Shown here: piece by piece, positions 50,324 to 61,994 of the stretch
Layout of the letters: the number at the start of each line of letters is the position of its first letter
Position numbering within the stretch: the first letter of the stretch is position 1
Sequence record: OR780565.1
DNA: 64,000 nucleotides
From: Escherichia phage DCP2
Strand: one strand, 5' to 3'
Program-made: the position numbers and the translations under genes
Notes under the pieces: model-generated
The model's database searches: none
The model's input: only the letters and a program-made list of their open reading frames with translations
What the model was told of the DNA's origin: nothing

Positions 50324-51048
50324 ATGAAACTAATCTTTTTAAGTGGTGTAAAGCGTAGTGGAAAAGATACTACCGCAGATTTTATCATGAATAATTATTC
50401 TGCAGTTAAATATCAACTTGCTGGTCCTATTAAAGATGCATTGGCTTATGCATGGGGTGTATTTGCAGCAAACACTGACTATCCTTGCTTAACTCGTAGA
50501 GAGTTTGAAGGAATTGACTATGATCGTGAGACTAATTTGAATTTGACTAAATTAGAAGTAATTATGATTATGGAACAAGCATTTTGCTATCTTAATGGTA
50601 AAAGCCCAATTAAAGGTGTGTTTGTTTTTGATGACGAAGGAAAAGAATCAGTTAATTTCGTAGCATTTAACAAAATTACTGACGTTATAAATAATATTGA
50701 AGATCAATGGTCAGTCCGTCGTCTGATGCAAGCCCTAGGTACGGATTTGATTGTTAATAACTTCGACCGCATGTACTGGGTAAAATTATTTGCTTTAGAT
50801 TATCTTGATAAATTTAACTCAGGTTATGATTATTATATCGTTCCTGATACCCGTCAAGATCATGAAATGGATGCGGCTAGGGCGATGGGTGCTACAGTAA
50901 TTCATGTAGTTCGTCCTGGTCAAAAATCCAATGATACACATATTACAGAAGCTGGATTGCCAATTCGTGATGGCGATTTAGTAATTACAAACGATGGTTC
51001 TCTTGAAGAACTTTTTTCTAAAATTAAAAATACACTAAAGGTACTATA

Positions 51049-51049
<1 letters not shown>
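50324..51049 (+). CDS. 1: gp1 dNMP kinase
   Basis: 241 aa, same as T4 gp1; P-loop GVKRSGKDT. Confidence 0.9.
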
Positions 51050-51734
<685 letters not shown>

Positions 51735-51746
51735 TTTCACAAAGTT

Positions 51747-51776
51747 GTTTACATAGGGTTTTAGTTGTGATACTAT
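51747..51776 (+). promoter_or_regulatory. early promoter with embedded stem-loop (PeSL-like)
   Basis: gtttac-N18-tactat; flanking atagggt...accctat inverted repeat; upstream of ipI. Confidence 0.5.
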
Positions 51777-51810
51777 TACCCTATCAAAACAAAACCAAAT
51801 GGAAATCAAA

Positions 51811-52044
51811 ATGAAAACTTACCAAGAATTTATTGCTGAAACTGCTGATGTAAAAGTTGAGTTTATTTACACTGGCAAGAAAGATAAAATGGGTGAAATG
51901 CCTCATGGAGTTCTTCGTGATGCATTAGATAATTTCGGTCAACTCGCCGCAGAAGATTACGGTGATAAAATTGTTGTTACTGGTCCTGCTGCAGTTATTG
52001 AAAAATGGGCAGCAGAAAATAAATCAATTTTTCGTAAAAAATAA
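51811..52044 (+). CDS. ipI: internal protein I (capsid-targeted, injected)
   Basis: N-terminal capsid targeting sequence MKTYQEFIAE; about 77 aa; position next to 57B as in T4. Confidence 0.85.
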   Translation: MKTYQEFIAETADVKVEFIYTGKKDKMGEMPHGVLRDALDNFGQLAAEDYGDKIVVTGPAAVIEKWAAENKSIFRKK

Positions 52045-52074
52045 GTTTACTTTTAGATAGGGTAGTGATACTAT
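52045..52074 (+). promoter_or_regulatory. early promoter with embedded stem-loop (PeSL-like), second copy
   Basis: gtttac-N18-tactat with gataggg...ccctatc inverted repeat; shares the 19-nt string gtgatactattaccctatc with the copy at 51768. Confidence 0.5.
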
Positions 52075-52102
52075 TACCCTATCTACTACTGAGGAGAATA
52101 AA

Positions 52103-52288
52103 ATGAAACGTTGTGAATTAATTCGAAATGTTGCTATTGCAATTTCTGCTTCCGCTTTTAGTTTTTCAATGTTTGTTGGATTTATATGTGGATTATTGAC
52201 TACAGCAGAAAATGTGTTTTCACTTGTAGTAGCATTTTTAATTGGTTTAATTGCTATTGTTATGGATAAAATTTCTAAAGGTGAATAA
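52103..52288 (+). CDS. small hydrophobic membrane protein
   Basis: 61 aa with two predicted TM segments; GAGGAG RBS. Confidence 0.55.
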   Translation: MKRCELIRNVAIAISASAFSFSMFVGFICGLLTTAENVFSLVVAFLIGLIAIVMDKISKGE

Positions 52289-52686
52289 TGAACGTTGAAT
52301 ATTATGTATATGCGGATTACGAAAATAATCCGTCTAAAGATGAAGATAATCGTTTAGGTGTAGATGCTTTCGATTCCCCTGCGGCGGCATGGCAATGGGT
52401 TGAAAGAACCGATATTCCTTACCGTTATATTGAAGTGGTTGACCACGCAGGAAACAAGTATCCTAAGGAAGCATATGTTGCTTCCGGGAAGGTAAATTTC
52501 CTTTTGTTTGCAGGTGATAATTATTATCCCCGTGGTGGGTATACCGATTTAATTGCTAAAGCATTCTCTGAAGATGAACTCCGTGACATTATCAAAGAAA
52601 ATGAAAACAAACCGATGGATTCTAATCGCTTTGATTGGTGGCAAATCGTAAATGCTAATACTCACACTATTGTTGATGAAGGCTGA
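52288..52686 (+). CDS. hypothetical protein
   Basis: 132-aa ORF; ATG overlaps the upstream stop (TAATG). Confidence 0.55.
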   Translation: MNVEYYVYADYENNPSKDEDNRLGVDAFDSPAAAWQWVERTDIPYRYIEVVDHAGNKYPKEAYVASGKVNFLLFAGDNYYPRGGYTDLIAKAFSEDELRDIIKENENKPMDSNRFDWWQIVNANTHTIVDEG

Positions 52687-52688
52687 TA

Positions 52689-52976
52689 ATGATTCTTTAT
52701 GCGAAAGTATCATCCATTGAAAATGGATATAAATATGATCAAGACGCGGCTAAAGCTTTGATTGATGATTATGGCATTTTAACATGTTTTGAAGTTGAAA
52801 AGGTTTACATTGACCGTTCATCTTCTCAAGTTAAATTAGTGAAGGAAGAACGTAAATTTAATACAGTAAATTTTGATTTCTTTATTGAAACGGAAAAAGG
52901 TCCTCTTGAATATGATATTTTCAAGAATCCTTTGGGTCTTGAATGCATCGTAAATATGTATTATCATAAATGGTAA
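52689..52976 (+). CDS. hypothetical protein
   Basis: 95-aa ORF with ATG start in an early-gene block. Confidence 0.5.
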   Translation: MILYAKVSSIENGYKYDQDAAKALIDDYGILTCFEVEKVYIDRSSSQVKLVKEERKFNTVNFDFFIETEKGPLEYDIFKNPLGLECIVNMYYHKW

Positions 52977-53086
52977 ATATGCTTTAAGAATTATTTGTTA
53001 TTATTAACTTATATCGCACTGATTAATACCCTCTATCATCAAGGGCTCTTTCCTGAGAGCCTTTGTTAATAATTGGGAATCATATT

Positions 53087-53695
53087 ATGGATACTAAATT
53101 AGCTGAAATTTTTGAAGGAAAACATCCAAATTTTAGTACAGGAAAGCTGAAAGACAAAATAATAAAAGAAAATATTTTTCCATATGAGTGTGCAATTTGT
53201 AAAATTTCAAAATGGCAAAATAAGCATATTGTTCTGCAATTAGACCATATTGATGGAAATAACAAAAATCATCTTAAATCAAATTTAAGATTATTATGTC
53301 CAAATTGCCATTCGCAAACTGATACTTTTGCTGGTAAAAATATTAAAAATAATAAAAAGCGTTATAATGTTAGTGATGAAGAAATTTTAAACGCATTATT
53401 AAATTCGGCTACTATATCATCTGCAATTACTTCATTAGGTTTAAGTAAAGGCGGAAACTATAAAAGATTCATTAAAATTGCTAATGATAATAAATTATAT
53501 CATTTACTGGTAAATATTAATGAAAAGATTTTAACTGATGAAATTTACGAAGAATTAGTTAAAATCGATTATTCTAAATTTGGATGGGTTAGTAAAGCTG
53601 CTAAAATAATAGGTATAAGCCCACAAAAAGCTAGAAAATGGATAGAACGAAAATGTCCAGAATTGATAGAACAATCTTTTTCACGTAATAAATAA
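53087..53695 (+). CDS. HNH homing endonuclease immediately upstream of the tRNA cluster
   Basis: HNH motif (LQLDHIDGNNKNHLKSNLRLLCPNCHSQ); first ATG at 53087 (the track start is TTG). Confidence 0.7.
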   Translation: MDTKLAEIFEGKHPNFSTGKLKDKIIKENIFPYECAICKISKWQNKHIVLQLDHIDGNNKNHLKSNLRLLCPNCHSQTDTFAGKNIKNNKKRYNVSDEEILNALLNSATISSAITSLGLSKGGNYKRFIKIANDNKLYHLLVNINEKILTDEIYEELVKIDYSKFGWVSKAAKIIGISPQKARKWIERKCPELIEQSFSRNK

Positions 53696-53701
53696 TATAG
53701 A

Positions 53702-53788
53702 GCGAGAATGGTCAAATTGGTAAAGGCACAGCACTTAAAATGCTGCGGAATGATTTCCTTGTGGGTTCGAGTCCCACTTCTCGCACCA
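53702..53788 (+). tRNA. tRNA-Leu (anticodon TAA), CCA encoded
   Basis: Manual cloverleaf: gcgagaa/ttctcgc acceptor, anticodon loop cttaaaa, long variable arm, ggttcgagtcc T-arm. Confidence 0.8.
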
Positions 53789-53793
53789 AATTT

Positions 53794-53867
<74 letters not shown>

Positions 53868-53877
53868 ATTTAATTTA

Positions 53878-53951
53878 CTCCGTGTAGCTCAGTTTGGTAG
53901 AGCGCCTGATTTGGGATCAGGAGGTCCAAGGTTCAAATCCTTGTATGGAGA
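53878..53951 (+). tRNA. tRNA-Pro (anticodon TGG), no encoded CCA
   Basis: Manual cloverleaf: anticodon loop tttggga, ggttcaaatcc T-arm; 2 nt upstream of tRNA-Ser (dimeric precursor arrangement). Confidence 0.75.
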
Positions 53952-53953
53952 CT

Positions 53954-54043
53954 GGAGGCGTGGCAGAGTGGTTTAATGCACCGGTCTTGAAAACCGGCAG
54001 TCGCTCCGGCGACTCATAGGTTCAAATCCTATCGCCTCCGCCA
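53954..54043 (+). tRNA. tRNA-Ser (anticodon TGA), long variable arm
   Basis: Manual cloverleaf: ggaggcg/cgcctcc acceptor, anticodon loop cttgaaa, long variable arm, CCA encoded. Confidence 0.8.
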
Positions 54044-54047
54044 GTTT

Positions 54048-54124
54048 TGCTGATTTAGCTCAGTAGGTAGAGCAACTCACTTGTAATGAGAAGGTCGGCG
54101 GTTCGATTCCGTCAATCAGCACCA
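54048..54124 (+). tRNA. tRNA-Thr (anticodon TGT)
   Basis: Manual cloverleaf: tgctgat/atcagca acceptor, anticodon loop cttgtaa, ggttcgattcc T-arm. Confidence 0.75.
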
Positions 54125-54125
54125 A

Positions 54126-54199
54126 GGCCCTGTAGCTGGAAGGTTCAAGCAAGCGACTCATAATCGCCAGATGGTGGTTCAATTCCACCCAGGGCCACC
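54126..54199 (+). tRNA. tRNA-Ile/Met (anticodon CAT; probably lysidine-modified Ile as in T4)
   Basis: Manual cloverleaf: ggccctg/cagggcc acceptor, anticodon loop ctcataa. Confidence 0.75.
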
Positions 54200-54208
54200 A
54201 AATTAATT

Positions 54209-54296
54209 TGGGGAGTTATCCCGTAGAGGTAGCGGTGTGGACTGTAAATCCATTGTCATTGCGACTCGGGTGGTTCGACTCCACCACTCCCCACCA
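54209..54296 (+). tRNA. tRNA-Tyr (anticodon GTA), long variable arm
   Basis: Manual cloverleaf: ggggagt/actcccc acceptor, anticodon loop ctgtaaa, ggttcgactcc T-arm. Confidence 0.7.
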
Positions 54297-54300
54297 ATTT

Positions 54301-54375
54301 GGATGTGTAGCTCAATGGCAGAGCGATCGCCTGTTAAGCGATTGGTTATAGGTTCGAATCCTATCACGTCCGCCA
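54301..54375 (+). tRNA. tRNA-Asn (anticodon GTT)
   Basis: Manual cloverleaf: anticodon stem atcgc/gcgat with loop ctgttaa, ggttcgaatcc T-arm. Confidence 0.75.
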
Positions 54376-54489
54376 AATTTGTGACAACTGTCACATTAAT
54401 ATCTACTTGACGCGATTATAGGGGTTGAACTGATCACTCTTCTCTTAATTTCGTGTGAAGACATCTTGATTGTTGGAGTAGGTATTAAT

Positions 54490-54565
54490 GTGGCCGTAGT
54501 TCAGTTGGTAGAACTCGAGATTGTGATTCTCGTAGTCATGGGTTCGACTCCCATCGGTCACCCCA
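54490..54565 (+). tRNA. tRNA-His (anticodon GTG) with extra 5' G(-1)
   Basis: Manual cloverleaf: anticodon loop ttgtgat; 8-bp acceptor stem including G-1 opposite discriminator C. Confidence 0.75.
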
Positions 54566-54569
54566 ATTA

Positions 54570-54645
54570 CGGGGCATAGCTCAGAAGGAAGAGCAAGGAC
54601 CTTCTAAGTCCTAGGTCGTAGGTTCGATCCCTACTGCCTCGACCA
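54570..54645 (+). tRNA. tRNA-Arg (anticodon TCT)
   Basis: Manual cloverleaf: anticodon stem aggac/gtcct with loop cttctaa, ggttcgatcc T-arm. Confidence 0.8.
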
Positions 54646-54663
54646 ATTATAAGTGAGGAAAAT

Positions 54664-55014
54664 ATGAAAGGTAATGTTTATTTAGTAGTTCATGATTTAA
54701 CATTCTATTTTAATCATAATGATACTGTTATTTCTGAACGTGTAATTAATTTGCTTTATCAGCATGCAGATTATGTTTATGTCGAAAACGAATATGGTCA
54801 TTGGCAATTTCTCAAAAATCGTTCATTTGGTTTAGATGGTTACGAATATTTTGATCGTAAAGACCTTTTAGATACAATTCCGTTATCTACACAATATCAA
54901 AATCATAAGTCTTTACATAAATGCCGGCTAATTCGAAATGCTGAATCCGCGTATGAAGCAATTGATTTGTGGCGTAAACGCCGTGAATATATTGATTCTT
55001 TAAAAGAATATTAA
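54664..55014 (+). CDS. hypothetical protein downstream of the tRNA cluster
   Basis: 116-aa ORF with GAGGAAA RBS and ATG start. Confidence 0.55.
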   Translation: MKGNVYLVVHDLTFYFNHNDTVISERVINLLYQHADYVYVENEYGHWQFLKNRSFGLDGYEYFDRKDLLDTIPLSTQYQNHKSLHKCRLIRNAESAYEAIDLWRKRREYIDSLKEY

Positions 55015-55318
55015 GAAACCGGGTCGCTACCGGTAAGTCGTCGGACTGATGTTCCCTGGAGTATAGTTTCCTCCCACAGTTTTACTGTGTTCTGGCTCTT
55101 TACTATCACAGCAGAAACGGCGCACCGAATTATCGATTCGAGGAAATATCTTTGCCGTAAGCCGAGTAGCGTTTTTGACGGAACGTTCGGATATGGTCGA
55201 GATATGGCCTTTTAAAAATATTGAGTAGCGTCAACTACTTAATAACCGGGTTCGAATCCCGGCGTTTCGTACAAACACTTGCCTTAGCAGGTGGAACCCC
55301 GACAAGGTTGCCGCAAGG
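55015..55318 (+). ncRNA. GC-rich structured non-coding region; candidate small stable RNA(s)
   Basis: About 300 bp with no convincing ORF, above-background GC, and a tRNA-like T-arm (ccgggttcgaatcccgg); T4 has stable RNAs of unknown function near its tRNA cluster. Confidence 0.35.
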
Positions 55319-55349
55319 CTTAGCCCCGACCGAAAGGTTGGGGCTTTTT
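55319..55349 (+). terminator. 31-nt hairpin plus T-run (repeat copy 1)
   Basis: cttagccccgaccgaaaggttggggcttttt; identical copy at 55876-55906; followed by TATAAATA at 55352-55359. Confidence 0.65.
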
Positions 55350-55397
55350 GGTATAAATATTAGTATATTAAATCTACAAATTAAAACAGGAAATAAG

Positions 55398-55871
55398 ATG
55401 AAATCATATACTCAATTTTTAAATGAAGCGGTGTTAAATGAAGCATCTAGCACCGAAATTCAAGCTGTTGCAAAAGCTGCCATTGCCGCGGGTAAATATT
55501 CCTATAAAGATGCTTCTGATGAATCGCGATTCCAGTTTGCACGCGACATGAAAGCGGAAGGATTTACGGGAAATGCAGTTAGTATGGCCTGGAAAAGTTT
55601 AGTTGCTACTGGCGCTGCTTTTGCAAAGGCTTCGGGTAAACCTGCTCCTAAAGCAGATCCTAAAGCGGCACAAGAAAAAAATATCGTTAAAGGAATTATC
55701 GCTAAATATGAAGCTATCCTTAAAGAGCTTTTAGTAATCAAAACCGAAGGCCAAAAGTTAGCCCGTGCTTATAGTTTCAAAGATAATCCACATGTTCACT
55801 CTCTTGAGTATGTTGAAGACATCCAAAAAATTATTAAAGACCGCATTTGGTCTGCTAAACAAATCAAATGA
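55398..55871 (+). CDS. internal protein (CTS-bearing, IPII/IPIII-class)
   Basis: N-terminal MKSYTQFLNE resembles the MKTYxEF(L/I)xE capsid targeting sequence; late promoter upstream; the track ORF's 5' extension is rejected. Confidence 0.7.
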   Translation: MKSYTQFLNEAVLNEASSTEIQAVAKAAIAAGKYSYKDASDESRFQFARDMKAEGFTGNAVSMAWKSLVATGAAFAKASGKPAPKADPKAAQEKNIVKGIIAKYEAILKELLVIKTEGQKLARAYSFKDNPHVHSLEYVEDIQKIIKDRIWSAKQIK

Positions 55872-55875
55872 CATT

Positions 55876-55906
55876 CTTAGCCCCGACCGAAAGGTTGGGG
55901 CTTTTT
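55876..55906 (+). terminator. 31-nt hairpin plus T-run (repeat copy 2)
   Basis: Exact repeat of 55319-55349, directly after the IP gene stop. Confidence 0.65.
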
Positions 55907-55996
55907 AGTTTGAATCACTCGGATAACGCTGTTACGGATAGTAACAAAGTAATAAATAATTAATAACCAACCGATAAATTATTTCAAGGATTTTAA

Positions 55997-56560
55997 ATGA
56001 AAACCTATGCCGAATTTTTAACCGAAGCAGCAAAATTACCATCTGAAGCAGATCTTACTAAAGTATTCTTCCAATTGGACCCAAAAGACCGCGGCGATTT
56101 TCTTAAGTGGAAAGCTAAAGCTATTGAAATGTACAACATCGATAATAGTTCTTTTACAATGAGTCAAGAAAATAAATTCAATAAAGCATTTTTCAAAATT
56201 TCTAAGAAATTGGCATCTGGCGCTCAGGTTCCTAAATCTGTGTTAGCTACTCCTGAACGCGCACCTGTTAAAATTTCTAAGAATATGTTCGACACTAAAA
56301 AATACGTTAATGCTTTGAATAAAGCTCTTGATGCATTGGATGATGCAAAGAAGGCAGCCCGCGATCTTCAAGACGTGTACACCGATTTTGACCGCAAAAC
56401 TAAAGGTTCTATTTCAAATAGCGAACGCAATAGTGTAAGTGTTTATTCTGATAGCCTTGATGTTCTTGGCGATGCGTATACTGAAATTAAAAATCGTATT
56501 AACACTGCATCTAAGCTAAAAGCTGCTGCAGAAGCTATAATAAGTAAACTAGGTAAATAA
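55997..56560 (+). CDS. internal protein (CTS-bearing, IPIII-like)
   Basis: N-terminal MKTYAEFLTE capsid targeting sequence; 187 aa; followed by ccctatc-taaat-gataggg hairpin plus T-run at 56569-56592. Confidence 0.7.
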   Translation: MKTYAEFLTEAAKLPSEADLTKVFFQLDPKDRGDFLKWKAKAIEMYNIDNSSFTMSQENKFNKAFFKISKKLASGAQVPKSVLATPERAPVKISKNMFDTKKYVNALNKALDALDDAKKAARDLQDVYTDFDRKTKGSISNSERNSVSVYSDSLDVLGDAYTEIKNRINTASKLKAAAEAIISKLGK

Positions 56561-56789
56561 TTTTAAATCCCTATCTAAATGATAGGGCTTTTTGGTATCT
56601 AGGCCTTTCTGGACCTCTCTAGGCATCATTTAGTTTATACCCTTTATAATATATTATCCTATCCTTTAATTGCCCATCCCTGCCCTAGAATTCCCTAAAA
56701 ATTTTTTCACAAAACTGTTTACATCTCTGTTCTTCCATGGTACTATACAACTATCAACTACTGATACAGAAAACAACTTGGAGAATGAA

Positions 56790-57053
56790 ATGGATAATTA
56801 CGGCGAACTGTTCAACTTCTTTATGAAATGCGTTTCAGAAGATTTCGGTCGTACAGTGAATGATATTAAAGTTATCGGTCCTGATCATCCGATGTTTGAA
56901 ACTTACGCAGTAATGGGTAATGAAGACGGTCAGTGGTATACTGTAAAAGTTGTGATTAATATGTTCACAGCAGAAGGTTATGTTAAACTGTCTTCTAAAG
57001 TTTACCATGATAACGACGAAATCGCAGAAGAATATTTCAATAATATGAAATAA
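56790..57053 (+). CDS. hypothetical small acidic protein
   Basis: Start set at the MDNYGELF ATG with GGAG RBS; early-promoter-like gtttac-N18-tactat at 56716-56745. Confidence 0.5.
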   Translation: MDNYGELFNFFMKCVSEDFGRTVNDIKVIGPDHPMFETYAVMGNEDGQWYTVKVVINMFTAEGYVKLSSKVYHDNDEIAEEYFNNMK

Positions 57054-57154
57054 GTTTACGCAGGCTCATGATTGAGATATTATGAGCCTATAATTTGACG
57101 ATAGAGTATTATACTCCTACGGATTTTAAATCTCAATTAACCTAAGGAAATACT

Positions 57155-57748
57155 ATGAACACACTGAAGAAAATTGTTGAGTTTATTCGCACTAAACTTG
57201 GTTCTGCTATGGCTAAAAATCTATCTGTCGAAGAACAGTATACTGCTGCAGCAGCAAAACTACTTGATAAAATTAAAGATCTAAAAACTGCTTCTGTTAA
57301 ATCTATTAACGAAGAAAAACGTATTCGTGAACTTGTTATCGAAAAGAATCGACAGGCCGAATCAAAAGAGCGTGAAATTCGTAAACTTCTTTCCGAAGGC
57401 CAAGATGTAACAATGCATGCTAAACTCGGTTTACTATATCGTCGAACAGCTGAGCAGTTGACTACTAAGGCTGACGGTTATGCTGAAATGCGAATTGAAA
57501 TCGCCAAGAAAGTAGTTGAGTTAGATGATGCTCGTCAAGAACTTGCGGTTAAATTGGAATATATCCGTGAAACTCGTGCAGCAAATGCCCTTGGAATTAG
57601 TACTGCCGATGATGTAGTTGAAATTGCAGCACTGACTAAGGTTGATATTGAAGATACCCTTGCTCGAGTTGAAACCTTTAACGGTAATATTTCTGGGGTT
57701 GAAACTACCTCTGCCGATGTTCAGGAATACATTAATTCTCTGAAATAA
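57155..57748 (+). CDS. coiled-coil protein, possibly PspA/IM30-like
   Basis: 197 aa, almost entirely heptad-rich helical sequence; the PspA-like call is a weak impression from composition only. Confidence 0.5.
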
Positions 57749-57752
57749 TGAT

Positions 57753-57770
57753 AAGGGGCTTCGGCCCCTT
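57753..57770 (+). terminator. AAGGGGC-TTCG-GCCCCTT hairpin
   Basis: Perfect 7-bp inverted repeat with UUCG loop after the coiled-coil ORF. Confidence 0.6.
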
Positions 57771-57789
57771 ATACTTGGAGTAAATAGGA

Positions 57790-58404
57790 ATGAAAATGAA
57801 AATGCAAAGTGATTTCAATTCAATGTTTGAAGAGTTCCAAAGACAGGTTGATGTTCCAGACCAATTACTAAATGCTCTTAAACGCATGGCAGAAGGACGT
57901 AATTACTATTGGGGGTCTTCATATGAAACTGATGAAAGCCTTTCCGGAAGATTTTCTAGAGGTAAAAAGTCTTTAATACGTCCTGGAATACTTATTAACA
58001 GTATTGAATCAATTCATTTATTAACATGTGATTTTGACGTTGAATTTACTGATTTTGTTTCTCCTGAATGGACGGTCTGTTATTTAAACGACGATTATGA
58101 TTATCTTGGCGTTTATAGTTTAAGTGATGCACGGTTTAAACGTAATTTACAAAAGTCAAATTTATTTTATATTGATACTACGGTAAAATTTCAGGGCAAG
58201 AAATATTTCTTTACTCTTATAGTTGATTCTGAAACGAAGCATGAGAATAAACGTATTCTTAGTAAAAAGAATATCTTAACTATTGTTGATGATCTTTTTG
58301 ATAAATTCGTAGAAAATCCCAATTTTGAAAGCGATTTATTACTAGAAAAATTTGTTAAGGAATGTAGAGAATATGTCAAAACCATCACTATACCTTCCAA
58401 GTAA
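57790..58404 (+). CDS. hypothetical protein
   Basis: 204-aa ORF with ATG start and GGA RBS. Confidence 0.5.
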   Translation: MKMKMQSDFNSMFEEFQRQVDVPDQLLNALKRMAEGRNYYWGSSYETDESLSGRFSRGKKSLIRPGILINSIESIHLLTCDFDVEFTDFVSPEWTVCYLNDDYDYLGVYSLSDARFKRNLQKSNLFYIDTTVKFQGKKYFFTLIVDSETKHENKRILSKKNILTIVDDLFDKFVENPNFESDLLLEKFVKECREYVKTITIPSK

Positions 58405-58765
58405 ACCGTTGAAGTATGAATTAAAGCGCCAGCTAATTCCTACTGATGTATTAGTAGGTCCTGTGACAGCTGTATCATTTATAATCCTAATGATTATTGG
58501 AATAGTTATAGATGTTACTACTGATATTGAATCAGACGCAGTATTTCTGTTAGTATTAATTCTTCCATTAGTAGTTCCATTTTTATTAGTACCTGTAAAT
58601 TGGGTAGGATACTGGTATCAAGGAAGACATTATCGTAAACGCGTACGCGAATGGAAAGCTCAGTGTAAAAAGATTAAAAAGGAACATCAGCTTAAACTTG
58701 CTGCGTATGAATTTAATGAAATTATGAAATTTGTTAAGGAATCACGATGCAAAAGCCAAAACTAA
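58373..58765 (+). CDS. small 2-TM membrane protein, paralog A
   Basis: First ATG at 58373 (MSKPSLYLP); two hydrophobic helices then a basic tail ending ..FVKESRCK. Confidence 0.5.
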   Translation: MSKPSLYLPSKPLKYELKRQLIPTDVLVGPVTAVSFIILMIIGIVIDVTTDIESDAVFLLVLILPLVVPFLLVPVNWVGYWYQGRHYRKRVREWKAQCKKIKKEHQLKLAAYEFNEIMKFVKESRCKSQN

Positions 58766-59109
58766 ATAAAGTCAAATATTCGTTTCCAGAGGCACTATTA
58801 ATTCTTGCCATATCAGCATTTGCAGCTCTTGCAGGTAGTCTTATTGGATTAATGATTGACTGTCTTATTTTAAACATCGACGGCACAGTAAATATAACAG
58901 AAGTTTGGAGTGAGCTTTGTTATACTAAAATTATTTCATTGTTTTCATTCTTTGGTATCATTTTATATTTTCATTATGATAATTTTAAAATAAATTGGCA
59001 AAGAAAAAAGGATTACAAAATACAATTAAAAGAATATAATAACTACATGTCTTATATTGAAAAAGAATCAATGGAAGAGTTTGTGAGTGATTGCAGGAAA
59101 ATTAAATGA
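58747..59109 (+). CDS. small 2-TM membrane protein, paralog B
   Basis: 120 aa; two hydrophobic helices then basic tail ..EEFVSDCRKIK; the start lies within the end of paralog A. Confidence 0.55.
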   Translation: MQKPKLNKVKYSFPEALLILAISAFAALAGSLIGLMIDCLILNIDGTVNITEVWSELCYTKIISLFSFFGIILYFHYDNFKINWQRKKDYKIQLKEYNNYMSYIEKESMEEFVSDCRKIK

Positions 59110-59594
59110 TTTTAAAAACTCGCTGGTATGATTTAGATGATGGAGATGATGGCATTCCAGTTGATAGAGTTGATTGGAATGGCTGTTCCGAAGATATGAA
59201 AAATTTGTTGATTAGGGAGTTTAGAATGGGATATCAAGTAGTTAAGCCATCTACTGTAACAGACGATAAATTCGTTTGTATTCAAAACGGTCGTGCTAAG
59301 TTAACGAACGCTGAATGGTTTACGGATAAGAATATGCTTCTGTGGTATATCATTAGTCTTCCTGCGTCATCATTCGTATTTTACTTCTTTGGAAAAAATC
59401 CAATGGACAGAATAGGAGATTGGGCTCTTTGTACTATATTTGTTAATATTTTTACTGCAGCAATATTATCCGGAATATGGTGTGTGTTCATTGAAATGCC
59501 ATGGCGGTTACGCAGACAACAAAAGATTTTTGATGAAAAGAAATATGCTCAAAATTTAAATAACTTTATCACTGAATGCAGGAAATTAAAATGA
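59106..59594 (+). CDS. 2-TM membrane protein, paralog C
   Basis: 162 aa; soluble N-terminal region, two hydrophobic helices, tail ..NFITECRKLK; ATGA overlap with paralog B. Confidence 0.55.
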   Translation: MILKTRWYDLDDGDDGIPVDRVDWNGCSEDMKNLLIREFRMGYQVVKPSTVTDDKFVCIQNGRAKLTNAEWFTDKNMLLWYIISLPASSFVFYFFGKNPMDRIGDWALCTIFVNIFTAAILSGIWCVFIEMPWRLRRQQKIFDEKKYAQNLNNFITECRKLK

Positions 59595-60031
59595 AAACAT
59601 TATCAGCTGGTATTATCTTTATGACAGAAGATAAAGATTTATTTATGGGACGAGTTACCGGTTCTCGTAAACCTGGAATGATTGCACATCGCTGGGATAT
59701 TCCAAAGGGGCGTGTAGAAAGTTCTGATTTGAATGCACTGGAAGCTGCAAAAAGAGAATGCTCAGAAGAGACTGGTTTTATCGATTATAATCCAGACCTT
59801 CTAGAAGACTTAGGTGTATTTAAATATTCTAGTAATAAAGACTTACAGTTATTTTATTATACGATTCCAGTAGAGCATGAGATGTTTAGAAATTGCCATT
59901 GCGAGTCTTATTTTGAAAATAAAGATGGCGTTATGATTCCAGAGATGGATGCTTTTGCTCTTATTCCTCGTACTCAGTGGCAATATGTGATGGGTCCTTC
60001 ACTTTACCGAATAATGAACAGCCTCTTTTAA
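59576..60031 (+). CDS. nudE: NudE Nudix hydrolase
   Basis: 151 aa from the ATG at 59576 (alternative ATG at 59591 gives an ATGA overlap); Nudix box GRVESSDLNALEAAKRECSEETG; directly upstream of e as in T4. Confidence 0.8.
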   Translation: MQEIKMKTLSAGIIFMTEDKDLFMGRVTGSRKPGMIAHRWDIPKGRVESSDLNALEAAKRECSEETGFIDYNPDLLEDLGVFKYSSNKDLQLFYYTIPVEHEMFRNCHCESYFENKDGVMIPEMDAFALIPRTQWQYVMGPSLYRIMNSLF

Positions 60032-60834
<803 letters not shown>

Positions 60835-60835
60835 T

Positions 60836-60865
60836 GTTTACTTCCTCCAAGGACTTTGATACTAT
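60836..60865 (+). promoter_or_regulatory. early promoter with embedded stem-loop upstream of denV
   Basis: gtttac-N18-tactat; inverted repeat cctccaa (60844-60850) / ttggagg (60881-60887) pairs the promoter region with the denV Shine-Dalgarno. Confidence 0.5.
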
Positions 60866-60892
60866 ACATTCATCAACTACTTGGAGGAAATT

Positions 60893-61309
60893 ATGACTCG
60901 TATCAATTTAACACTTGTTTCTGAACTGACCGATCAACATCTTATGGCTGAGTATCGTGAATTGCCACGTGTTTTTGGTATAGTTCGTAAGCATGTGGCA
61001 AACGGTAAGCGCGCTAAAGATTTTAAAATATCTTCTAAATTTATTTTAGGTTCTGGTCATGTTACTTTCTTTTACGATAAGTTAGAATTTTTGCGAAAGC
61101 GTCAATCGGACATTATAACGGAATGCTTAAAACGCGGGTTCAGTATAAAAGATACTGAAGTTCCTGACATCAGCGATATTCCAGTAGAATGGAAAAATGA
61201 TTATAATCCATGCAAATCAGCTATTAAGTTGAGTCAACAACGACTCGATGAAAAAATTTTAATGAAGCCACACTGGTATAAGTATTACGGCAAAAATATT
61301 TACATTTAA
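60893..61309 (+). CDS. denV: endonuclease V, pyrimidine-dimer DNA glycosylase
   Basis: Start set at [12 protein letters not shown], giving 138 aa as in T4 DenV; GGAGG RBS. Confidence 0.9.
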
Positions 61310-61454
61310 ATAACATGGGAATAACCTGGACCTCATGATTCTATGAGGGATTCCCGCCAACCTGTAATAAGGTCGAGCCCAAGTGCGGTAATGGGTAAAT
61401 ACAGAAATGGACAATTCATGCGCCATGGAATGGCCCAAATTTAGAGAGAATAAA

Positions 61455-61994
61455 ATGAGAACATTTTTAACTGGTCCTTATCTATCCCTGATGAATGCTT
61501 TTACACACCATTCTGATGCTAGAGTAGAAGAAATTTGTAAAAACGAATATATCCCACCATTTGAAGACTTACTTAAGCAGTATTGCACACTTCGACTAGA
61601 CGGTGGACGTCAATCCGGTAAATCAACTGCTGTGACTAACTTTGCTGCTAATTGGCTGTATGACGGTGGAACAGTTATTGTTCTTTCTAATACTTCAGCT
61701 TACGCTAAAATTTCTGCAGGCCACATTAAAAAAGAATTTTCTCGTTATTCTAGTGATGATATTCGATTCCGCTTATTTACTGATTCTGTCCGTAGTTTTA
61801 TCGGTAATAAAGGAAGCAAGTTCAGAGGTTTATCTCTTTCGCGAATTTTGTATATAATCGATGAGCCTGTTAAATCTCCTGATATGGATAAAATTTACGA
61901 TATTCATATTGAAACTGTGCAACACTGCTGTAATAGTAAATGCTGCATTGGCGGTATTACTCGTCCGCAGTTTTTCGTAATTGGAATGCAATGA
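61455..61994 (+). CDS. small P-loop NTPase
   Basis: Walker A GGRQSGKST and Walker B-like ILYIIDE; start at MRTFLTG (alternative ATG at 61425). Confidence 0.55.
   Translation: MRTFLTGPYLSLMNAFTHHSDARVEEICKNEYIPPFEDLLKQYCTLRLDGGRQSGKSTAVTNFAANWLYDGGTVIVLSNTSAYAKISAGHIKKEFSRYSSDDIRFRLFTDSVRSFIGNKGSKFRGLSLSRILYIIDEPVKSPDMDKIYDIHIETVQHCCNSKCCIGGITRPQFFVIGMQ

Follow-up and report, generated by a model that had tools for sequence, protein, structure and literature searches.

T4-type internal proteins (IPs) are small, non-essential proteins that begin with a 10-residue capsid-targeting sequence (CTS) carrying an (I/L)-x-E cleavage site; in IPIII mutants, residues 4 and 7 govern capsid targeting, while residues 8 and 10 govern processing by the prohead protease gp21 (PMC9026906). 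Ip1, Ip2 and Ip3 each block one distinct GmrSD restriction enzyme, with no cross-protection (PMC12373910). The closest described cassette system is that of the promoter-early stem-loop (PeSL) elements, where an intergenic early promoter with a stem-loop lies at the boundaries of indels and replacements in hyperplastic regions (Arbiol 2010; Comeau 2014). PeSL mini-circles have been shown by inverse polymerase chain reaction in RB49 and phi1 (PMC2839356), the mechanism has been extended to the T4/PST pair (PMC4122927), and PeSL-like elements are reported at T-even IP loci (PMC2839356, PMC4122927), for which both papers cite Repoila 1994. This study examined 64,000 nucleotides of Escherichia phage DCP2 (sequence record OR780565.1; the whole stretch is hereafter the window), and we are highly confident that it holds four ip genes, distributed over three variable sites (57B-trna.4, rnaC-e.8 and e-denV). 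These ip cassettes are very probably units bounded by repeated promoter/terminator hairpins that encode CTS proteins and undergo PeSL-type shuffling. The cassette arrangement and its main content are established T-even biology and add no new principle. No earlier description was found of a third ip site, located after rnaC and encoding two CTS proteins that lack an ip annotation; recent papers count 'two Ip loci' and leave this one out. The site may nevertheless have been recognized before, since Arbiol (PMC2839356) refers to more than 30 known IP variants.

The window belongs to a T4-like coliphage of the genus Tequatrovirus, with approximately 99% DNA identity to many coliphage records. A 5-kb query from the locus matched 1,152 phage records (54 at a coverage of at least 80% and 35 at an identity of at least 99%), and its close relatives are Tequatrovirus phages infecting E. 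coli, Shigella and Yersinia. A six-frame scan of the whole 64 kb for the motif MK[ST][YF]x[EQK][FL] gave exactly four matches, all at the starts of plus-strand open reading frames (ORFs), compared to a mean of 0.02 matches in 200 shuffles of the sequence. The four ORFs start at positions 51811 (77 aa), 55398 (157 aa), 55997 (187 aa) and 60553 (93 aa) and are referred to below, in that order, as IP-A, IP-B, IP-C and IP-D. Residues Y4, F7, I/L8 and E10 are present in all four, and the gp21-type (L/I)-x-E site at residues 8-10 reads IAE in IP-A, LNE in IP-B, LTE in IP-C and LSE in IP-D. An earlier note on this DNA, made from the sequence alone, had claimed four CTS-like ORFs, which the scan bears out; its description of them as IPI plus three extras had to be abandoned, as all four are non-T4 IPs. 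No orthologue of T4 ipI, ipII or ipIII or of PST ipIV was found in the window by tblastn, and the window proteins share no sequence similarity with T4 IPI, IPII and IPIII beyond the CTS. Two of the three sites, 57B-trna.4 and e-denV, are also locations of T4-type IPs, IP-A being Ip6 and IP-D a paralogue of Ip5, whereas in T4 the rnaC-e.8 site, which in the window holds IP-B and IP-C (neither with an ip name in the records listed), is empty. Pfam gave no significant match for any of the four proteins and a sub-threshold match to cytochrome b562 for IP-C only.

IP-A (51811-52044, plus strand; CTS MKTYQEFIAE) is ip6 (IpVI). Its mature form has about 67 residues and an isoelectric point (pI) of 6.5, its profile matches phrog_8111 'internal virion protein' (1e-52), and it occurs in 245 phage records, several of which name it ip6 or ipVI. 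Phage KarlGJung (Bas37) encodes an identical protein (100%), Bas37_0260, at the same locus. Disruption of Bas37_0260 made Bas37 specifically sensitive to McrBC in a HIDEN-SEQ preprint of November 2025 (10.1101/2025.11.20.689424), and the identical protein is reported to inhibit McrBC type IV restriction, not GmrSD. The earlier note had labelled the 51811 gene ipI; it does occupy the ipI position, but the gene is ip6 and the target McrBC rather than GmrSD. As a candidate T4 IPI, the protein was rejected: BLASTP gave E = 0.058 at 26% identity, the two fall into different families (phrog_8111 vs phrog_4363), and T4 IPI, which starts with MKTFKEFTSTTT, shows no relation to it past the leader.

Early-promoter stem-loops lie on both sides of ip6. 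The first (51747-51785, plus strand), upstream of ip6, has a GTTTAC -35 box and a TG-n-TACTAT -10 box, and its stem ATAGGGT/ACCCTAT encloses the -10 box (-14.8 kcal/mol, z -3.8, folding energies being scored here and below as z against shuffled sequence). The second (52045-52086, plus strand), upstream of trna.4, has the stem AGATAGGGTA/TACCCTATCT (-18.5 kcal/mol, z -4.6). Elements were counted as early promoters of the PeSL type if they combined -35 and -10 boxes at 17+/-1 spacing with a stem-loop, and in a regular-expression scan both elements showed the T4 early-promoter pattern of GTTTAC, an 18-nt spacer and TACTAT after TG. GTTTAC-N18-TACTAT with stems was found at 51747, 52045, 57054 and 60836 (fold z -3.7 to -5.2), and all repeated elements fold far better than shuffles. 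The two elements flanking ip6 share the 19-mer GTGATACTATTACCCTATC (51767-51785 and 52065-52083; 0 copies expected by chance); a repeat pair bracketing this gene had been noticed before, but its copies start at 51767 and 52065 rather than at 51768 and 52066.

Comparison of the window with T4, PST, OE5505, DalCa, Bas37, PP01, a48, EC.W14-2, mogra and KP1 indicates how the ip sites vary. Every gene boundary at 57B-trna.4 has an early promoter with its -10 box inside a stem-loop, and three stem variants recur, Pa (GATGAGGTA), Pb (ATAGGGT) and Pg (AGATAGGGTA). The order is Pa-ipI-Pb in T4, Pa-ipI-Pb'-ip7-Pg in EC.W14-2, Pa-ip5-Pb-ip6-Pg in PST, OE5505, DalCa and Bas37, and Pb-ip6-Pg in the window. 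The element upstream of ip6 in the window recurs in relatives, after ipI in T4 and at the ip5/ip6 boundary in OE5505, DalCa, PST and Bas37, and a single PeSL pair encloses ipI in T4 but the unrelated ip5 in OE5505. The relatives' ip5 unit is flanked by the 32-nt direct repeat GATTTAAAATAATTTCACAAAGTTGTTTACAT, of which a single copy is left in the window, where ip5 is missing; in Bas37, by comparison, ip5 stands upstream of ip6. Of 630 records that match the flanks, 60 were sampled across the set; their inserts measure approximately 360, 440, 700, 790 or 1083 nt, corresponding to one to three ip genes.

At the rnaC-e.8 site, the cassettes are bracketed by terminators instead of early promoters. 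The tRNA transcription unit ends in two stable RNAs on the plus strand, rnaD (55014-55126) and rnaC (55133-55271), which were placed by blastn alignment to the annotated T4 RNAs (79% identity for rnaD and 99% for rnaC) because Rfam, searched over 51000-61500, matched the ten tRNAs only, with nothing at rnaC or rnaD. The following elements are also on the plus strand. Terminator T1 (55319-55349; stem AGCCCCGACC/GGTTGGGGCT and T5; -20.3 kcal/mol, z -3.7) forms the left boundary of the IP-B cassette, and directly after it comes the late-promoter core TATAAATA (55352-55359), 46 nt upstream of the IP-B start. IP-B (55398-55871) is followed by T2 (55876-55906; -20.3 kcal/mol, z -5.2), an exact 31-nt copy of T1 that serves as both the right boundary of IP-B and the left boundary of IP-C. 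After IP-C (55997-56560) stands T3 (56569-56593; CCCTATC/GATAGGG and T5; -10.5 kcal/mol, z -2.7). There are exactly two copies of the 31-mer CTTAGCCCCGACCGAAAGGTTGGGGCTTTTT (55319-55349 and 55876-55906), against none expected by chance. Both the exact terminator repeat around the 55398 gene and the ccctatc/gataggg stem after the 55997 gene had been reported from a first inspection and were found again, the latter as a hairpin with a T-run. In T1, T2 and T3 the hairpin is followed by TTTTT, as in intrinsic terminators, and the annotations of DalCa and OE5505 list them as such.

Three versions of the rnaC-e.8 site were observed among the compared genomes. T4 and PST have a single terminator (T1), the sequence GGTATCTAGGCCTTT and the e.8 promoter, with no ip gene; PP01 and a48 have a terminator, TATAAATA, IP-B, a second terminator, the same GGTATCTAGGCCTTT and the e.8 leader; and the window, OE5505, DalCa and EC.W14-2 have IP-B, IP-C and a third hairpin before GGTATCTAGGCCTTT. 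The sequence after T3 in the window is therefore the one that follows the single terminator in T4 and PST, and because GGTATCTAGGCCTTT is common to the zero-, one- and two-gene versions, the joints can be placed in GGGGCTTTTTGGTAT, which covers the hairpin's 3' half together with the T-run. The layout extends beyond Tequatrovirus. The Mosigvirus mogra shares it, and in the Klebsiella phage KP1 (Jiaodavirus) the tRNAs are followed by a hairpin and TTTTTAGTATAAATA, then by an IP-B homologue that begins MKFKEFLAEAS and, last, by another hairpin; the KP1 stem differs in sequence from that of the window but keeps its pairing. The late-promoter core TATAAATA before IP-B is conserved in PP01, a48 and KP1. 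A survey of flank spans at this site is confounded by the variable e.7 slot, and its use is qualitative only. That slot, between e.8 and e.6 (57054-57154), is empty in the window, whereas it holds e.7 (111 aa) in T4 and a 58-aa ORF in Bas37 and PST. It is marked in the window by a PeSL after e.8 (57054-57092, plus strand; stem AGGCTCATGA/TTATGAGCCT; -15.7 kcal/mol) and some 60 nt similar to the sequence 3' of the Bas37 ORF, which makes it another indel at a PeSL.

The cassette variation among relatives that the shuffling idea of the earlier note presupposes is therefore present, with ip genes present, absent or replaced across the ten compared genomes. The resemblance to PeSLs drawn in the same note is supported, with a correction at IP-B, where terminators and a late promoter take the place of early-promoter stem-loops. 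In the proposed mechanism, the short repeated hairpins would supply homology for phage recombination, either within one genome or between co-infecting phages, and recombination between repeats would delete, insert or replace single ip genes while keeping working expression signals on each. The hairpins that bound these units are near-identical: at 57B and e-denV they are early promoters whose -10 box lies within a stem, and at the rnaC site they are terminators with a late promoter after them. The joints lie inside repeated hairpins at 57B-trna.4 and rnaC-e.8, and similar elements stand at gene boundaries at e-denV. We infer recombination at these particular repeats, and the mapped joints fit this model. 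Two differences from the described PeSLs should be noted: the stem lies upstream of the promoter in the RB49 and PST figures but wraps the -10 box in the window, and the boundaries of IP-B and IP-C are terminator and late-promoter units with no early promoter. Integron gene cassettes are also similar in that single promoterless or self-contained genes between short repeated recombination sites are exchanged as units. Unlike integrons, however, the phage system has no integrase and no attC-type site, and exchange would presumably proceed by the phage's general homologous recombination on repeats of 15-40 nt.

It could also be that the hairpins are ordinary promoters and terminators that selection keeps for expression and that have no special role in recombination, and that the cassette differences arose in mixed infections via general T4 recombination in the conserved genes on either side, together with occasional illegitimate events. 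Every element does have a plausible regulatory role (early-promoter boxes, terminator hairpins with T-runs, a late promoter), the flanking genes are 88-100% identical among relatives and so offer ample homology, and mini-circles are known for RB49 and phi1 only, not for T-even IP loci. The T-even elements are, moreover, analogues rather than homologues of the RB49 PeSLs that yield mini-circles (Arbiol 2010, PMC2839356), a point that counts against PeSL-type shuffling here. However, the indel joints fall exactly within repeats (the 32-nt GATTTAAAATAATTTCACAAAGTTGTTTACAT around ip5 and GGGGCTTTTTGGTAT around IP-B and IP-C), one PeSL pair frames the unrelated ipI of T4 and ip5 of OE5505, and recombination in the flanks alone would be unable to alter gene number. 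We consider this explanation rather unlikely and prefer shuffling at the repeated hairpins themselves.

IP-B and IP-C, the two proteins at the rnaC site, are labelled 'hypothetical' or 'uncharacterized' in all matches and cluster names listed. IP-B (CTS MKSYTQFLNE, then a second LNE-A site) contains a 5-residue duplication, FLNEAVLNEA (55398-55445), that gives two consecutive gp21-type L-N-E/A sites (the second LNE at residues 13-15), while several of its homologues have a single gp21-type site only. IP-C (CTS MKTYAEFLTE) has two predicted helical domains. The two show little similarity past the CTS in pairwise BLASTP, yet both belong to phrog_2280 ('unknown function'), which qualifies the earlier note's view of the extra IPs as sequence-divergent. 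IP-B occurs in 511 phage records, across genera, and IP-C in 164; Bas37 carries both, as bas37_0244 (IP-B) and bas37_0243 (IP-C). A set of 5.8 billion proteins yielded only shallow families, of 13 clusters (IP-B) and 11 (IP-C), and the CTS motif is kept in relatives less than 45% identical overall (MK-FKEFLAEAS, MLEYSEFLKE). Removal of the CTS would leave proteins of 16.0 kDa (IP-B) and 19.6 kDa (IP-C), both with a pI of 9.5; T4 IPII* and IPIII*, neither of which has an orthologue in the window, have a pI of 9.6 and a similar size. The AlphaFold model of IP-B is all-alpha with two domains (predicted local distance difference test, pLDDT, 75), and that of IP-C has the same layout but is weaker (pLDDT 59). 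As a separate observation, OE5505 has the IP-C gene annotated as two overlapping ORFs (L001 10237-10557 and 10554-10799), which points to a frameshift, either in a pseudogene or through a sequencing error.

By analogy with T4, we infer that IP-B, IP-C and IP-D are packaged in the head, cleaved and injected. The CTS would bind the scaffolding core of the prohead, as in T4 IPIII, gp21 would remove it after (I/L)-x-E at residue 10, and the mature protein would stay in the head and be injected with the DNA, where it could disarm a host nuclease before phage gene expression. For Ip6, the injected anti-nuclease step has experimental support from the identical Bas37 protein, which is needed to escape McrBC. 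The remaining three are most likely, by extension from Ip1, Ip2, Ip3 and Ip6, injected inhibitors of other first-response nucleases, with further type IV restriction enzymes, GmrSD- or Mcr-like, as their most likely targets. The anti-defence reading of the earlier note is thus upheld for 51811 through the Bas37 McrBC inhibitor, without the GmrSD-type IPI identity that had been attached to it.

Several results weigh against packaging and injected inhibition. No exact TATAAATA late-promoter core lies upstream of IP-A, and upstream of IP-C there is just TAATAAATA. For IP-B, IP-C and IP-D, neither virion proteomics nor N-terminal sequencing turned up in the papers searched, where a search on RB32ORF133c/RB14ORF136 and on Tequatrovirus virion proteomes gave nothing useful. 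The models of IP-B and IP-C have no informative match in PDB or BFVD and no known fold, so no mechanism can be deduced from the fold. In addition, ip4-ip10 gave no reproducible inhibition of the GmrSD variants assayed (PMC12373910 supplement), so type IV enzymes are not guaranteed as the target.

Two other explanations bear on IP-B and IP-C in particular. First, they could be cytoplasmic proteins that are not packaged, with the CTS likeness stemming from a shared 5' module (ribosome-binding site and first codons) spread by recombination. Their 'hypothetical' label in all database rows listed, the lack of a function for phrog_2280, the lack of proteomic support found and the lack of a canonical late promoter before IP-C are all compatible with this. 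However, they retain the targeting and processing residues Y4, F7, L8 and E10, the motif persists in the distant relatives mentioned above, a late promoter abuts IP-B in three genera, and both are basic and near IPII*/IPIII* in size in a window that lacks orthologues of those proteins; we regard a cytoplasmic role as quite improbable. Second, IP-B and IP-C could have a mainly physical role in the head, such as charge neutralization or DNA packing, rather than act as specific defence inhibitors. Such a role has long been discussed for IPII and IPIII, and the pI of 9.5, the helical structure without an enzyme-like fold and the spread of IP-B over 511 records across genera, more like a semi-core function, speak for it. 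The basic T4 proteins IPII and IPIII nevertheless each inhibit a specific GmrSD, and T4 and PST do without IP-B and IP-C, which means that neither is required for head assembly. This second explanation we judge unlikely, and packaged inhibitors of host defence remain our preferred reading of the pair. The wider proposal, that the rnaC site is a third internal-protein hotspot extending from Tequatrovirus to Mosigvirus and Jiaodavirus, whose products are packaged and injected inhibitors of host defences, is put forward tentatively, as a possibility that falls somewhat short of an even chance. If it is true, possible targets would include GmrSD variants active on T-even phages without a known Ip inhibitor. 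IP-B (511 records) and IP-C (164) are two candidate anti-defence proteins with no internal-protein label in the rows and cluster names listed. Ip1, Ip2, Ip3 and Ip6 have been matched to specific type IV enzymes, so any Ip still unassigned points directly to a host defence, and because internal proteins act before phage gene expression, they influence the range of strains open to a therapeutic T4-like phage.

At the e-denV site, the window holds IP-D (60553-60834, plus strand), a CTS protein of phrog_3499, a family annotated as internal proteins. It is 48% identical to ip5 of OE5505, and many records list it as an internal head protein. Its first codon shares an ATGA with the stop codon of the lysozyme gene e, upstream of which lie two TATAAATA cores, at 60034 and 60047. 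Between IP-D and denV stands an early promoter with the long stem TTCCTCCAAG/CTTGGAGGAA (60836-60898, plus strand; -18.5 kcal/mol). This site also varies in content: it has ipIII and ipII in T4, ipIII and ipIV in PST and an ipIV-like gene in OE5505 (the latter two without denV), and nothing in DalCa and Bas37. Its gene boundaries carry early promoter/stem-loop elements, except for the overlapping e/IP-D junction of the window. The end of the lysozyme gene (60500-60560) reads ...TGTWKAYI in the window, while T4, DalCa and OE5505 have ...TGTWDAYKNL and then an early promoter. The 90% cluster of IP-D includes RB69ORF127c from a Mosigvirus, which suggests exchange between genera.

The gene order on the plus strand is that of T4 read counter-clockwise: gene 3, gene 1, 57A, 57B, the ip gene, trna.4, trna.3, trna.2 and an HNH endonuclease; then ten tRNAs, an extra ORF, rnaD, rnaC, two ip-like genes and e.8; and finally e.6 through e.2, nudE, e, the ip gene and denV. 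The HNH homing-endonuclease gene (phrog_14736, E 5e-124) lies at 53087-53695, between trna.2 and tRNA-Leu, and is missing from many relatives with about 99% identity, such as DalCa, which cover just 87-88% of the query; T4 and PST have the GIY-YIG gene segB within the tRNA cluster in its place. The ten tRNA genes at 53702-54645 (Leu, Gly, Pro, Ser, Thr, Met/CAT, Tyr, Asn, His and Arg) compare with eight in T4, and tRNA-Gln, with which the T4 cluster begins, is absent. The 114-nt spacer between tRNA-Asn and tRNA-His (54376-54489) contains a 24-nt inverted repeat that is 83% complementary and carries no assigned feature. A 116-aa ORF of unknown function (phrog_3355; 54664-55014) lies between tRNA-Arg and rnaD, with its stop abutting the rnaD start; it is not found in T4, where rnaD directly follows tRNA-Arg. 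In the e.2/e.3 region, the 3' ends of two neighbouring small membrane-protein genes (59080-59109 and 59565-59594) are 80% identical over 30 nt and encode ...CRKIK stop, which suggests that these genes are tandem paralogues.

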